Shown here: piece after piece, positions 6,001-42,000 of the stretch
How positions within the stretch are numbered: position 1 is the first letter of the stretch
Layout: each line of letters opens with the position of its first letter
Origin: a plasmid
DNA length: 64,000 nucleotides
Assembly (NCBI RefSeq): GCF_056746865.1
Contig: NZ_JBWKMP010000002.1
Direction: 5' to 3' (one strand)
Made by a program: the position numbers

Positions 6001-9000
6001 CTCATCAATAGTTCGATGGGCTACGTAACAGGCGGTCTAAAAGGTTTTGGGATCATGAGCCTCGGCTCTTTGTACAGTTCTTCTGACGCCGAATACATCC
6101 AGGTCAATCAATACCTAGTGTTCGTCCCCAATCCAAAAAAATTGCCTTACAATGATGAAAGTTTGGTACGTGAAGGAGCTAAGTATGTTTTTGAGCATAC
6201 AAAAGCAACTCAGGCCTCATTTGGATACAACCCTGAAAAACAGAAAGCAGCTCTGGCCACATGTAAAATTGATATGGCAGTCGTCAATAAATGGAGTACC
6301 TGTGATCTGCCCTCTAAGCCTGATGCTGATGTTTTCCCTACAGATTCAATGTACAGCTTTCAGGCGATTCGCCCCGCAACAGGAACCGAAATTCCTCAGC
6401 TAAACCTTCCCGCTGGTGATTACGCTGTAATTCGTTATGTGTTCATCCCATTTAAAGGAAACGAAACAAGCGCTGATTTTTCGGGTATCATTTTCCGTTC
6501 TGATAGCCCAAATACAACAACTCCAGGGGGTGTTGCAGCCTCCATCAACGGAAAAGATTATTACCTCTTTACCGGTGAATACGGTAAAAAAGGCTTCCCA
6601 GAAAAAACATTGAAAGCCAAGTAATTAAAAAAGGGGCCTAACGGCCCCTTCTTCAATATTTCGGCAACTGCTTGCCCGTAACCGGATCCAGCGTAGTTGA
6701 ACCTACCTCACATATGGCCGGTCGAGGTAAATAGCTACAATCTACATTTTCCTCTTTTATAGCCTGAGCATTTTCTTGTCTGGCCTTTATCATATTTTCT
6801 TCACCGCCCATTGCTTCCTTGGTACGTTCTGATGGAAGTTGATAGTTCTCATTCTGGAATGGTAAGTTTTCCACAATTGATTCTTCGGAGAATTTTGAAT
6901 ATTGATCAGGAACTTCTCCTACCTGAACTGCATCATTAATCCACTCCGTCAGATCAATTTTATCGAAATCCAGTTGCTGTATTTGCTTTATTGATAGCCC
7001 CACGCAATTAGAGGCGACAGGGTCTATTCCTAATTGCGGATAAGCTTGTTGCATAATAACGCGTGACAACATGGAATTATAACAGCACATGTCTGTTGCT
7101 TTTTTAACGCATTTCTTTGTGAAACCAACATTCAGATATTTGACGCATCGTTCCGTATCTAATGTAAAACAGGATTTTTGATTCTTATGAATAGAAGCTT
7201 CCATCTCTTTCTGGTCGCATGCTACCAACATTTCTAAAAGCATTTTAGTGACCTGATAGGCTGTATAAATCCAACCGATCACGTTTAATGCAAGCATAAA
7301 GTTTTGAACCGCAGCCGAGAAGACAACCTCTCCTCCGGTAGTAGCAACGTTCTTAAAGACAAAGTCTCGAACTGTATCTGGTAGCAATTCGTAGGCTTTC
7401 TTCATTGCCATCTGCTTAAGCTGACCTATACCGAAGCTGGACATTGTTTCCTGTGCCAACTGGCCAGCACCTCCTGCCCCTCCAGAAGTTGCGGAAGACC
7501 CAACTGCCCTGCTTAGATTACCAGCGACGTTTTCATATACGCTCGTTAAGGAGCTCGTGACATTGTTCCACATTTGCCCTACTGTTTTACCAGCTGATGC
7601 AGTCCACTCACCGACCGCATTGGACATAGAAGCCCATGTACCTGTATCACCGCCGGTCCATTTTATTAGCTGAGCATTAACTCTGGTCCAGTTAGTGTTT
7701 CTGATCATAGATCCGGCAAGCATGATACCTTCAAGTGCTCCTGCGGTTCCCTGCGGTGCTTCGCAGCAGTCCGTCTTTGCCAGGCCATTTACAAAGCCTA
7801 CTGAACGACCACACCATTCAGGTTTTCCTTCAAAGACAGAACAGGAATTGGCATCGTTAGGGTCTTCGCATTTGGCTTCGCCCTGCATGTACTGAACCAT
7901 GTTTGAATAAGCCGCAACTTTTCCAAAATCGTTGTTCTCTTCCTTTGGCCCAGTTTCGCATGTTCCTCCAGAACATGGGATCATGCCAACACAGGCATTT
8001 GTAGAAGATTCAACCTCACGAACTACATCCTTACCTCTGTCACAGGTGTATTTCTGTTCATACATGTAGCAGCTGTTAGTGCCCTCATCGAACCAACCCT
8101 CTGCACATGTTTGTTTATCGAGTACACATGCTGCATCATTTTTATAAGAACTACATGCATCAGGCATACTCTTAATTTCTTCGTAGTTGTAACAGAGGTC
8201 CTTTCCATTAGCGTCTTTCATAATTTTCCCACTGGCGTCATAAGAGCAAATCTTGTCTTTAGCCAATGGATCACAAAAATAGCCTTCAAGGTTAGTCTTC
8301 CAGGTAAGAAAGCCTTTATCGCCTTCATACAGCGGCTTTGCCATAGAAAGCACGCTTTCCGGAAGCCGCTTCGTGCCAACATCCATATCTTTAAACCGAT
8401 CGAAACGGCAGAATGTATTTGGTGTTTGTACAGCATCGTAACAACCAGCTGGTTCCTGGACGTGCTTATCTTCGAGCTTCATATTTTCAAACGTCAGCTC
8501 AACCTCAAAGTACCCTTCACCTCCCCCACCAACCCAGACTCTGGATGCCATTGTCACTTCACGATCAGGTTCTTCATAAACTGATTTTCTGACCTTTTCA
8601 GTTACATCGTATACTTTGTCGAGTTTCCACGATTTTTTTAACTCCCAAGATCCCTTTGGAGCCGGATAGTCACTTTCTCGATATGCACCATCTATGTGAG
8701 CAAAAATCTGCGTGCCATCAAGTGTTACCCGCATGTGGTCATCCCACTCCGCGTTAACAATCTTTGCTGAGGCCAATTTTGCATCCGGATGGAATTTTAA
8801 TGTCAGTTCGTTATCAAATACCCCGTCACTCCAGTAGTTGTCATCACGGCGACCAAACCATATACGCACACAATTATCGCCGCACATCGACATGTCTCCG
8901 TTTCCGCCTGAAATGTATACAGGAACAGAGAAGTCACGAGTTATCGTGCAGCTGCTGAAGTTATCTTGCTTAGGCGAGTTACAGTAGAACTCTTTGTAAT

Positions 9001-39000: not shown

Positions 39001-42000
39001 TCCGATGCTTTGTTACCAACAACCGTGATCTCTTCATTCATGTTTGGAGGGGTAACAATCGTCACTGGGTCAGTGAAAAAAAGAATCTTTGCAACCAATA
39101 ACCCAATGACGGCTATTGAAACAGTATTAATGCGGATAAGTTTTGTATCACGATTAATCAGGGCGCTGTATGTAATTCCAGCACCTGACGCTTCAGCTTG
39201 TGGGCTAAATCGTTTTTTAATGTCCAAAAAACGTCCCTTAGCACTTTCATCTTTCTTTACGTATGACTGTTCAAGATCACCGTTTTCATCCTTTTTAGAT
39301 TTTTTGAAAAAAGGGATGTTAATGCCACTTAGCATTTTCATTCATAGCTCCATCAAGAATACAAATCTCTGATAAATGGATCGTTGAAATAACGGCTACT
39401 AAAAACTGCTTTACCTGGCAAAAAACCGAGCCACCAGAGTCTGTGTTTTAGCAATCCTCTTATTCCTGACTCAGCTGCTTTGTTATACGCAATCCAATAT
39501 ACAACCGCTACTACAACAGAAAACCCGAAGCATTCGAAGATATTCCCAAATGCAACCAGAATGAATGCAAGCCCTATTTTTTTTGCATCCCAAAACAAAA
39601 TCAGTAGAGGCATGTTGATCCTGAAAGGGAATCTATAGGTATGCTGAGGAACGTCGTTCTGCTTACTCATTAAAAATCCAGAGAGGGGGATGAACCCCCT
39701 CATGCATGATTAACAATAAATTACAGCGGTACGCCAGCATCCATAAAGGTGCTGATAATTTTCTCGCCGTTGGCCATTACCAGCATCATGAATAATGAAA
39801 CCAGTGCCAGGCCCGGGTTAGACTTAAGGACAGAGAAATATACGCTTGAGATCAACATCGCGGCTGCCAGAATTTTGCCCGGAGCTCCAGTCATACTTTC
39901 ACTCATGTATGACCAAATATCTCCCAGTGCCCCATCATCTGAACCCGCATATGCCAGACCGCAAAAAAGCACGGTCAGCAGAACAAACAAAATCACTTTT
40001 GCGCTTTTTGTTTTAAAAAGTGCAGCCGTGTTAGATTTCTTTTCACTAAGGCCAATATTTAAAGAAAGTTCCATAATTACTCCGTGTAGATTTGAGTTCA
40101 CGTAAACGCGAATGAATAATACTTTTTTATTCCGATCCTTCCGTTCGCATAAACCCCCTTTTTTTAACGTTTAGCGATTGGTGAATTTTTAAGCAAAGGG
40201 GCCTAAAGCATAATCTTTGAAAAGTACCAGTGAACGCTTAGTAAAAGTTTGAAAGAGGGGAGGGGGTAAGATTACGTTAAGCTCAATCCTGAAGCTGATG
40301 AGACTCCTCAAGCATAAAAGTCACTTTTGATGGTTTGAAAAGCTCTAACTAGATATCGGGCAGGTAACTAAGCTTCATATCTAATCTTTTTTGTTCCCTT
40401 AATATCTATCTCTTGATTCTGAGAAGGCCGCATATCACTGTGCTCCCTGGTTCGGCAACTATCAGTTGGAGAAACTACATACAATCCTCGGCCGGTGCGT
40501 CATTCATCTAAATGCCTTTTACACCTCTGGGCGTGAGTGGGACTTTGTCTTGTCCATATGAACATCATTCATTCGAATGCTTTTGGCCAATGCTATTTAA
40601 GCAAATGCTTTCTGGCTGAGTCCTTTTGCGAATGAGTCTTTGATATAACTGCATGAATTTTGGGTTGTTTGGTGTACTAACAAAACAAAGGCATTTCTTT
40701 GAATGCCATTGGAGTTGTGATGCTTCTGATATTTTTTTGATCTCATATCAAACACATAGTCCTTCTGATGCCCAATGTCATAGATGTCTTGGACCATTCT
40801 CGCTCTTAACAAAGCTGTACTGTGTGTCATTCGACCTAATGCCATTCACCAAAATGCCTTTTTATACCACTGCATAGCTATGCTCGGGATACAGTGGCAA
40901 ACAAAAGCATTTCAATGAATGATTTTTTGGGATACCGACATCAAAAGCATTTGTATGAATGTAAGAGGCGTAATCCACAAAAGGCATTCACGTGAATAGA
41001 GTGCGCACGAAACCATCTTGCTCCACGGCATTTAATGAATGGGCTAGCATGTACGCTTGAGCCAGAAAGGCATACAGATGAATAGTCAGGAGTTCGTTTG
41101 AAAAGTTACTTTTTTGCACATTAAGCCGAGATGTAAGACCAGTAGTAAAAGAAGCACTAAGCATAGCACTGATAAATAACTTATTTTTCAGCATGTTATA
41201 ACCAGTGCATACCTGGTAGCTTTCAACCTTGTTTGGCGAGGGCCAGCTTAGGGCTTCTTTTGAAGATCTGAAATTGTATGTCGCGACCTTTCTTAACTTC
41301 TTGATAATCGAGATATCCGATAGATTCAAGTTCCCGCATTGCTTTACGAATTATCTGGTTTTGCGTACGAATAGGGGTTGTAAGAAGCAACCTTTCCCTC
41401 AACCGTTTCATATTAACGAACAACGTACCAGCTGGCATTGCTTCAAAATAAATATAGAGAGATTGCGCAGCTTCTTTTTTAGCCAAAATGTATAGAACCT
41501 GAAGGCTTAACAATGTCTTATGGTCGTAACGATACAGTTCCCACATAGAAGGATCCCCAACCAACTCAACAGTATCGCTTTTTGGATCAATCATAGCCTT
41601 CTGCACCAGATGCGTTACTGTGAACCGACCACTCCGAGAGTCTGAGAAGGCAAGCACTACCGATGCAAGGTTCATTAATGACTCTTTAAAGCGCGCACGA
41701 GTTCGTTTGTTGATGTTTGTTGAACTGATACCACACATCTTCGCAAACTCGTTAAAAGTCAGGGTAATCTTCTCGGAAGTAAAACCATATTTACTGAAAG
41801 CCATGATGATCCCGAGCCAGCACTTAAAGTCGGTAGACATAGATAGTTTGACACCAGTTATCTTGATGTCGTCATAACCCTCCGATCTTGCAATTTCCAT
41901 ACACGAAAGCTCATCAGAGGCATCAACTTCAAAGTTTCGGTCGCGGTTTTCTTTTGTGCCGACAGGGGTAAATACACTCAATCTCAACAGGGCCACGGGC

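Follow-up and report, generated by a model that had tools for sequence, protein, structure and literature searches.

The 64,000-nucleotide stretch of plasmid DNA analyzed here (contig NZ_JBWKMP010000002.1, RefSeq assembly GCF_056746865.1; hereafter the window) carries a Tra2 conjugative transfer region of the IncHI type. An open reading frame (ORF) map revealed a long run of minus-strand genes extending from 40101 down to 6653, broken by a plus-strand cluster (21658-24270) and by a stretch of higher G+C content without genes (26.7-30.4 kb). The first part of the minus-strand order reads trhA-L-E-K-htdO-trhB-orf-htdT-trhV-trhC, followed by a repeat array. It continues with parA-parB, a four-gene phosphoesterase operon on the other strand, parM-parR, htdA-F-K, rsp, and finally trhP-trhW-trhU-trhN (Table 1). 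A sequence-only reading of this DNA had matched the span 6653-40074 to an IncHI-type Tra2 region with partition modules embedded among the transfer genes. This order is borne out by the Pfam and NCBIfam assignments as well as by collinearity with the plasmids R478 and R27, and both ends fall exactly where they had been placed, 6653 being the stop of trhN and 40074 the ATG of trhA as set by the Prokaryotic Genome Annotation Pipeline (PGAP) in a 99.8%-identical plasmid.

Table 1. Features of the Tra2 region, its flanks, and the lesions private to this record (positions in the window; aa, amino acids)
Feature	Position	Strand	Evidence or remark
Replication initiator, IncHI2A replicon, RepB/Rep3 family	41223..42098	-	Adjoins Tra2; Rep3_N and Rep3_C matches
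trhA, pilin, first gene of AC operon	39721..40074	-	Position of trhA in R478/R27; 98% / 66% aa identity
trhL	39353..39703	-	Pfam TraL, E=1.5e-7
trhE	38553..39341	-	Pfam TraE, E=2.7e-20; 100% protein identity with R478
trhK (secretin), split	37281..38553	-	C-terminal piece matches TraK_C, just under curated cut-off
htdO (trhO)	36818..37279	-	NCBIfam HtdO equivalog, 213 bits
trhB	35473..36828	-	Pfam TrbI and NCBIfam TraB
Conserved 160-aa ORF	34983..35465	-	aa identity: R478 99%, R27 54%, Klebsiella relative 30%
htdT, DsbC/DsbP-like disulfide isomerase	34112..34864	-	PGAP name HtdT; CDGC motif
trhV, lipoprotein	33152..34102	-	TraV in Pfam and NCBIfam
trhC, VirB4/TraC-type ATPase, last gene of AC operon	30471..33143	-	TraC_F_IV and TraG P-loop domain
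Repeat array, ~10 units of 249 bp, probable Par1 centromere	27061..30043	+	Each unit with core GGCGATTAAGGGGGTTAAAT
parA promoter region, near-palindrome ATGCGTAAAGTTTAC.../ATGCGTAAAAG	26657..26860	-	Sequence inspection
parA, Par1, 417-aa Walker-type ATPase	25403..26656	-	AAA_31, CbiA, MipZ; protein identity R478 99.8%, R27 89%
parB, Par1, P1-type, broken	24402..25406	-	C-terminal fragment matches Pfam ParB PF08775
Four-gene operon: metallophosphoesterase, 278-aa, 173-aa, and 129-aa genes	21658..24340	+	First gene Metallophos
parM, Par2, actin-like ATPase	20257..21294	-	StbA_N, E=1e-66; ParM C-terminal domain, E=2e-60
Putative parR, Par2 adaptor, 212 aa	19607..20245	-	Directly downstream of parM; aa identity R478 99%, R27 42%
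htdA-htdF-htdK, AN operon start	17772..19203	-	Names from PGAP
rsp (R0009 homologue), 1434-aa Ig-like secreted protein	13348..17652	-	Protein identity R478 99.4%, R27 83%
trhP, 170-aa S26 signal-peptidase-like (TraF_RP4-like)	12558..13070	-	Peptidase_S26, E=9e-21
trhW, 507-aa TrbC-TraW fusion	11060..12571	-	TrbC_Ftype residues 199-282; TraW residues 311-488
trhU	9860..10915	-	Pfam TraU, E=5e-82
trhN, 1062-aa long-form TraN	6653..9841	-	NCBIfam NF011459 equivalog, full-length, 2531 bits
trhI, UvrD/Rep-family helicase	3788..5572	-	PGAP name TrhI; NCBIfam helicase matches
Lesion in htdA	19114		+1 frameshift
Lesion in second Z-operon gene	23115		+1 frameshift
Lesion in fourth Z-operon gene	24215		+1 frameshift
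Lesions in parB	25020 and 24646		-1 (25020, G-run) and +1 (24646); frame restored after 374 nt
Lesions in trhC	30636-41 and 31125-26		In-frame deletions, net -3 and net -6
Lesion in trhK	37785		+1 insertion; splits the gene into 268-aa and 161-aa ORFs
DUF4942/N6-methylase-like gene (563 aa in relatives)	48252-49943		-1 at 49298 (substitution at 49295), +1 at 49482; frame-restoring pair as in parB
Deletion of 215 bp	51351		A conserved 208-aa ORF loses its 5' end
Lesion in repHI2	55794		2-bp deletion; 362-aa gene (in relatives) becomes 190-aa and 157-aa ORFs

All eleven mating-pair formation (Mpf) genes listed for IncHI Tra2 (trhA, L, E, K, B, V, C, P, W, U, and N) were found, in order; the same source places trhF, trhH, and trhG in Tra1 (PMC11628540, citing Lawley 2003). 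On the level of protein families, Pfam and NCBIfam recovered the complete MPF_F core (TraL/E/K/B/V/C) together with the F-specific components TraW, TraU, TrbC, and TraN. Scanning the larger ORFs of the whole window recovered no domain of TraF, TraH, TraG, a relaxase, or a coupling protein. The differences from F listed already in the sequence-only reading are real. For the pilin, the TraA-family match of NCBIfam (E=1.6e-8) stayed under the curated cut-off; the H-pilin gene is named trhA in the literature (PMC7366339). HtdT gave no Pfam match; it matched the plasmid disulfide isomerase DsbP (4ML1, E=1e-12) and, weakly, Escherichia coli DsbC (1EEJ, E=0.12). Rsp showed a weak Big_3_3 match, and the 160-aa ORF between trhB and htdT had no family match in Pfam or NCBIfam. 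The DsbC-like gene, the long forms of TrhW and TrhN, and the S26 peptidase, all singled out beforehand, were each confirmed by matches of this kind. The peptidase additionally matched the signal peptidase I and TraF_Ti families of NCBIfam. Its gene is labeled 'TrhF' by the NCBI annotation, here as well as in the closest relative, R478, and R27. According to the R27 literature, the S26 peptidase gene of Tra2 is trhP and trhF is a Tra1 gene (PMC7366339, PMC11628540); the 'TrhF' label is likely a naming slip in the annotation rule. Beyond trhN, and thus outside the span originally described, lies trhI, which has been counted among the Tra2 genes (bioRxiv 10.1101/334409).

Comparison of the DNA with public records revealed the affiliation of this region. 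For positions 6653-30000, 621 plasmids matched over at least 80% of the length, the top match reaching 99.7% identity; positions 30000-42000 are present in 1114 records at an identity of at least 99%, and positions 42000-64000 in many records at ~100%. The hosts of these near-identical plasmids belong to the genera Escherichia, Salmonella, Enterobacter, and Klebsiella. MOB-suite typed the best-matching plasmids and R478 as IncHI2A and MPF_F, with R478 additionally being MOBH. The replication initiator adjoining Tra2 shares 99.7% protein identity with the first gene of R478 and 86% with its R27 counterpart. A second IncHI2 replicon is present in form of a repHI2 homologue (55294-56380), which is 99-100% identical to annotated RepHI2. 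TrhC sequences form a ladder, with at least 99% identity in 1108 records (IncHI2), 80-90% in 282 records including R27 at 83%, ~56% in Klebsiella and Raoultella megaplasmids, ~28% in the 'traC' of other large plasmids, and ~22% in F-type plasmids. In R478 (Serratia marcescens, NC_005211 / BX664015), the IncHI2 prototype, the order from the initiator through Tra2 to trhI is identical to that of the window, with a divergent ORF between trhN and trhI. All 28 of its genes from trhI to trhA are collinear with those of the window at 97-100% protein identity, three frameshift-affected fragments (85-96%) excepted. R478 and modern IncHI2 plasmids (e.g., NZ_CP091030) also share the 249-bp array unit and the four-gene operon, the modern ones being 99.7-99.9% identical on the DNA level; the window alone has small lesions, one degraded array core, and a 215-bp deletion. 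The search thus led to IncHI2A plasmids with the R478 order rather than to an unrelated family with another arrangement. We are therefore highly confident that positions 3.8-42 kb hold the canonical Tra2 of a conjugative resistance plasmid of the IncHI2 (R478) type, and no finding speaks against this identification. As such, it is an already known and very common backbone, whose organization has been published for R27 and R478 and which occurs in more than 1,000 sequenced plasmids.

Compared with the tra operon of F, the MPF_F archetype, homologues of TraA, L, E, K, B, V, C, W, U, N, and TrbC stand in an F-like order, with TrhC being ~22-23% identical to F-type TraC. In contrast to F, the transfer region is split into Tra1 and Tra2, leaving TraF/H/G, the relaxase, and the coupling protein outside the region covered by the window; TrbC and TraW are fused, TraN extends to 1062 aa, and an S26 peptidase, a DsbC-like protein, RSP, the htd genes, and the embedded partition modules are added. 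Furthermore, the relaxase of the relatives is MOBH and not MOBF.

The functions considered in the following derive from work on R27 and from the family assignments. F-like (MPF_F) type IV secretion and the H pilus would be encoded jointly by the AC operon (trhA-trhC) and the distal AN-operon genes trhP, trhW (the TrbC-TraW fusion), trhU, and trhN. TrhA would serve as pilin, TrhL, TrhE, TrhK, TrhB, and TrhV as the envelope core, and TrhC as ATPase, while TrhP would act as a TraF(RP4)-like S26 peptidase, TrhN as mating-pair stabilizer, and HtdT in periplasmic disulfide isomerization. A role in transfer regulation is predicted for htdA, htdF, and htdK. The structure of the AN operon and the role of HtdA as repressor, opposing the Tra1-encoded activators TrhR/TrhY, have been described (PMC7366339). 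RSP would be an immunoglobulin (Ig)-like surface protein needed for mating; it has been described as exported by the type IV secretion system and as required for mating in liquid (PMC6764697). The remaining components, trhF, trhH, trhG, the relaxase, and the coupling protein, would be located in Tra1 elsewhere on the plasmid.

Embedded between the AC and AN operons are the partition modules Par1 (parAB) and Par2 (parMR), with the four-gene phosphoesterase operon, the counterpart of the R27 Z-operon region, between them; both modules have been described as lying 'within tra2' in IncHI2 plasmids (PMC5034289). The intact homologue of ParB matches the P1 ParB structures 1ZX4 and 2NTZ (E=4e-16 over the DNA-binding and dimerization region), and IncHI2 ParB is 28% identical to P1 ParB. 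The near-palindrome ATGCGTAAAGTTTAC just upstream of parA is, by analogy to P1 parOP, a plausible candidate for the ParA operator; a homologous 20-bp palindrome lies at positions 25381-25426 of the R27 locus (L003). Par2 resembles the type II system ParMRC of R1 in its strong ParM domains and in the small downstream gene occupying the position of ParR. It differs in that the putative ParR has no family match in Pfam or NCBIfam and in that no clear parC iteron set was seen upstream of parM in the window, with no convincing set of parC-type iterons in 21250-21700. Segregation of the low-copy plasmid would be the task of both modules, with ParA, ParB, and the array acting in Par1 and ParM plus ParR in Par2. 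Two more ParB-type helix-turn-helix proteins are encoded past the initiator, at 42575-43630 and 46841-48004, flanking a Dam methylase gene (45659-46492).

The repeat array lies in the parA-trhC gap. Tandem Repeats Finder reported a 249-bp unit with 10.4 copies at 27061-29603. The best-conserved part of this unit is the 20-bp core GGCGATTAAGGGGGTTAAAT, present in 10 copies in the window, all on one strand, with 0 expected by chance. R478, with a parA-trhC gap of 3.8 kb, and the closest relative have 11 cores each, spaced as in the window, and R27 has 23 cores at a spacing of 52-54 bp within a gene-free parA-trhC gap of 3.1 kb. On its reverse strand the core reads ATTTAAC-N8-TCGCCA, a composite motif with 9 copies in the window, 10 in R478, and 22 in R27, which occurs on one strand and solely in the parA-trhC gap of all three. 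The annotated genome of P1 gives TCGCCA as the B-box of parS and ATTTCAC/ATTTCAA as its A-boxes; the core thus contains the exact P1 B-box, and its ATTTAAC is one mismatch away from an A-box. A Klebsiella relative (pGH44TC_fusion, locus L016, 2891-5242) carries parAB with an own upstream array of 121/376-bp units and the core TGCGAACAACGGGGTTGTT. This core, too, has a G-run between short inverted arms. The unit thus measures 52-54 bp (23 copies) in IncHI1, 249 bp (10-11 copies) in IncHI2, and 121/376 bp with a co-varied core in the Klebsiella relative. That the core stayed intact between IncHI1 and IncHI2 through such restructuring speaks for a site bound by a protein. Since the core resembles the A-box and B-box of P1 parS and ParB is of the P1 type, the array is probably the centromere of Par1. 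The core of the Klebsiella array further suggests co-evolution of the ParB site with ParB specificity.

The similarity to the type Ia system of P1 comprises the large ParA, the P1-type ParB, and a core with the B-box TCGCCA and the A-box-like ATTTAAC. In contrast, IncHI plasmids hold 10-23 candidate sites in an array of 1-3 kb upstream of parA, whereas P1 has one compound parS plus an integration host factor (IHF) site downstream of parB. This difference in position weighs against a centromere, as does the Klebsiella core lacking an exact TCGCCA. The array might instead be another cis element, i.e., an incompatibility or copy-control titration element, a platform for a regulator or nucleoid protein acting on the adjacent transfer operon, or a functionless satellite. 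Its location upstream of parA, unlike P1 parS or F sopC, its extent of ~3 kb, which is much bigger than known type Ia centromeres, and the only weak inverted repeat within the core are compatible with such a role. We nevertheless regard it as unlikely, given that the core is conserved between IncHI1 and IncHI2 despite the restructured unit, that an exact P1 B-box and a near A-box lie beside a P1-type ParB, and that in the Klebsiella relative parAB has moved off Tra2 yet a related array still lies upstream of parA. For a Par1 centromere, the more specific proposal of an unusually large, multi-site P1-type centromere, whose core of ~20 bp has been kept through rebuilding of the unit, is made tentatively and at somewhat less than even confidence; such an architecture would be experimentally uncharacterized, though it may already be described. 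The 'incC repeats' of R27 (PMC4853401) were considered as an earlier description of the array and rejected, being an unrelated part of the RepFIA replicon, which is located at 156 kb in R27.

Alignment with the closest relative exposed a series of small lesions in the window. Over positions 1-42992, the two differ by 28 substitutions and 35 gap openings, while the closest relative and R478 differ in the corresponding region by 780 substitutions and 37 gap openings, the latter representing real divergence. The ratio of indels to substitutions is thus ~26x above that of real IncHI2 divergence. The broken parB noted in the sequence-only reading is confirmed for this record, with the two frameshifts listed in Table 1. 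The reference trhK is intact at 423 aa, and the halves in the window map to it at 98% identity in two different frames; TrhC of the window has 890 aa compared with 893 aa in the reference. Before and after its lesion, each of the broken genes hardly differs from the reference. Around 40 more differences are packed into the first array unit (26.84-27.23 kb), where one core copy is destroyed. These differences fall into a 460-bp patch (26.8-27.3 kb) that is 8% divergent with many indels, its flanks being 99.9-100% identical. Gene conversion from another array unit was considered as source of the patch and rejected, no unit or record exceeding 92-94%. The 215-bp deletion shows no microhomology at its junction and is absent from the best-matching plasmids listed. 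R478 has the reference state at all testable private sites except 917; there, R478 has the same intergenic 1-bp insertion that sets the window apart from the closest modern plasmid, making this the sole 'private' site that is a genuine lineage polymorphism. No plasmid among ~1,100 and no record among 277 from E. coli shares the lesions. A collection of 15 billion proteins contains neither the exact 890-aa TrhC nor the 175-aa fragment of the second Z-operon gene, and the junction of the trhC deletion did not turn up in collections of genome, viral, and metagenome contigs.

Based on the indel-dominated spectrum, the few accumulated substitutions, and the incoherent targets, comprising a transfer repressor and an essential secretin, we consider sequencing or assembly errors, rather than biology, to be the probable though by no means secure source of the private lesions. 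Several observations speak against such errors. The indels lie mostly outside homopolymers, the trhC deletions are net in-frame, and parB and the DUF4942 gene carry frame-restoring pairs, which random errors do not predict. In addition, the parB G-run deletion recurs in 10 other assemblies, and the array region varies among IncHI2 lineages, so that some of the non-coding differences could be real. The same indel pattern, compensating changes, and recurrence would fit a real, decaying IncHI2 derivative, which would be transfer-dead through its broken TrhK, devoid of functional ParB, HtdA, and RepHI2, and kept by ParMR and the RepHI2A replicon. The redundant replicons and partition systems of IncHI plasmids (PMC5034289, PMC4853401) would make such losses tolerable. 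As the observations in its favor are real, we keep this scenario as a possibility, though a clearly less likely one than error. It leaves the ~26x excess of indels unexplained and requires nine genes to be affected with almost no substitutions accumulated. Loss of HtdA would derepress transfer and loss of TrhK would abolish it, leaving no coherent selective story, and the 460-bp patch matches no other array unit or record despite its near-identical flanks. Concerning the recurrence in parB, the identical 136-aa truncated protein, resulting from a G5-to-G4 deletion at 25020, was found on 10 independent public contigs, including short-contig Logan assemblies. At each of the remaining private sites these contigs show the reference state, and the two long contigs among them are riddled with broken genes; the deletion reflects either a sequencing artefact that recurs or a position prone to slippage. 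In consequence, the roughly ten gene-breaking lesions are not to be taken as pseudogenization without read-level support.

The surroundings of the interrupted repHI2 deserve description on their own. RepHI2 is 43% identical to the initiator adjoining Tra2. Iteron-like repeats flank the gene, with 21-bp repeats upstream (54553-54610 and 54976-55054) and, downstream (56869-57609), an 81-bp unit in 9.2 copies with the inverted motif TCACTACCGTTGTCA / TGACAACGGTAGTGA. On either side of this replicon, in inverted orientation, lie the genes of a pair of paralogous Ig-like proteins of ~810 aa (DUF4165, Big_3_2, and Big_3_3), at 51730-54186 on the plus and 58378-60798 on the minus strand; the pair has the Big_3 domain type in common with RSP.

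Extension of the comparison to more distant relatives clarified the status of the phosphoesterase operon and the array. The sequence-only reading had regarded the repeat array, the phosphoesterase operon, and the broken parB as extra content that does not fit R27 and had suggested a divergent family member. R27 (Salmonella Typhi, NC_002305), the IncHI1 prototype with its published AC, Z, and AN operons in Tra2 (PMC7366339) and its Par1/Par2 modules, is fully collinear with the window, including htdO, htdT, rsp, trhI, and the phosphoesterase operon. It has a counterpart for each gene of the window from trhI to the Dam methylase, in kept order and at 33-92% aa identity. Its four-gene metallophosphoesterase operon lies at positions 20184-22897 of the R27 locus (L003), and its parA-trhC arrays contain the same 20-bp core. 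R27 differs in its 52-54-bp units (23 cores) compared with the 249-bp units (10-11 cores) of IncHI2, and in its replicon set. Array and operon are thus standard, and from the list of extra content only the broken parB stands, as a peculiarity of this record and no trait of the family.

In the R27 numbering (rsp = R0009, parB = R0019, parA = R0020; PMC7366339, PMC6764697), the four genes of the operon correspond to R0015-R0018. Published work assigns trhZ and R0016 to a Tra2 'Z operon' with a described role in entry exclusion (PMC7366339) and lists eexB between parA and parM (bioRxiv 10.1101/334409). The phosphoesterase operon, transcribed divergently, corresponds to this conserved region and would be tied to trhZ and entry exclusion. 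Collinear copies exist in R478, R27, and the Klebsiella relative, the fourth gene of the latter being annotated 'trhZ'. This relative, the MOBH/MPF_F plasmid pGH44TC_fusion (NZ_MN543575), is probably IncHI3- or IncHI5-like. All its Tra2 genes are collinear with those of the window at 25-79% aa identity (TrhC 57%), and it shares the DsbC-like gene, the four-gene phosphoesterase/'trhZ' operon directly after trhC, a giant Ig-like protein, the S26 peptidase, and the helicase. It differs by having no parMR in the locus and by placing parAB and a repeat array with another core ~10 kb outside Tra2. Because this plasmid keeps the operon after trhC, without parMR in the locus and with parAB elsewhere accompanied by an own array, we conclude that the phosphoesterase operon is ancestral Tra2 content, that the par modules are inserts in the IncHI1/IncHI2 lineage, and that the array moves with parAB.

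Hence, that the window represents a divergent or novel IncHI member, whose Tra2 gained a repeat array and a phosphoesterase operon absent from R27-like plasmids, is highly improbable: the array unit length does differ (249 bp in the window versus 52-54 bp in R27), but no other support survived testing, as R27 itself has both operon and arrays, R478 is organized identically at 97-100% protein identity except for the three frameshift-affected fragments, hundreds of plasmids, including IncHI2A-typed ones at 99.7-99.9%, reach 99.7-100% DNA identity, and the four-gene operon is found even in a relative with a TrhC only 57% identical.

For the family as a whole, this makes the repeat array and the phosphoesterase operon part of the IncHI core and not additions of one lineage. 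In Enterobacterales, IncHI2 plasmids rank among the major vehicles of resistance to multiple drugs, colistin, and heavy metals, so that recognizing this backbone is useful for annotation.

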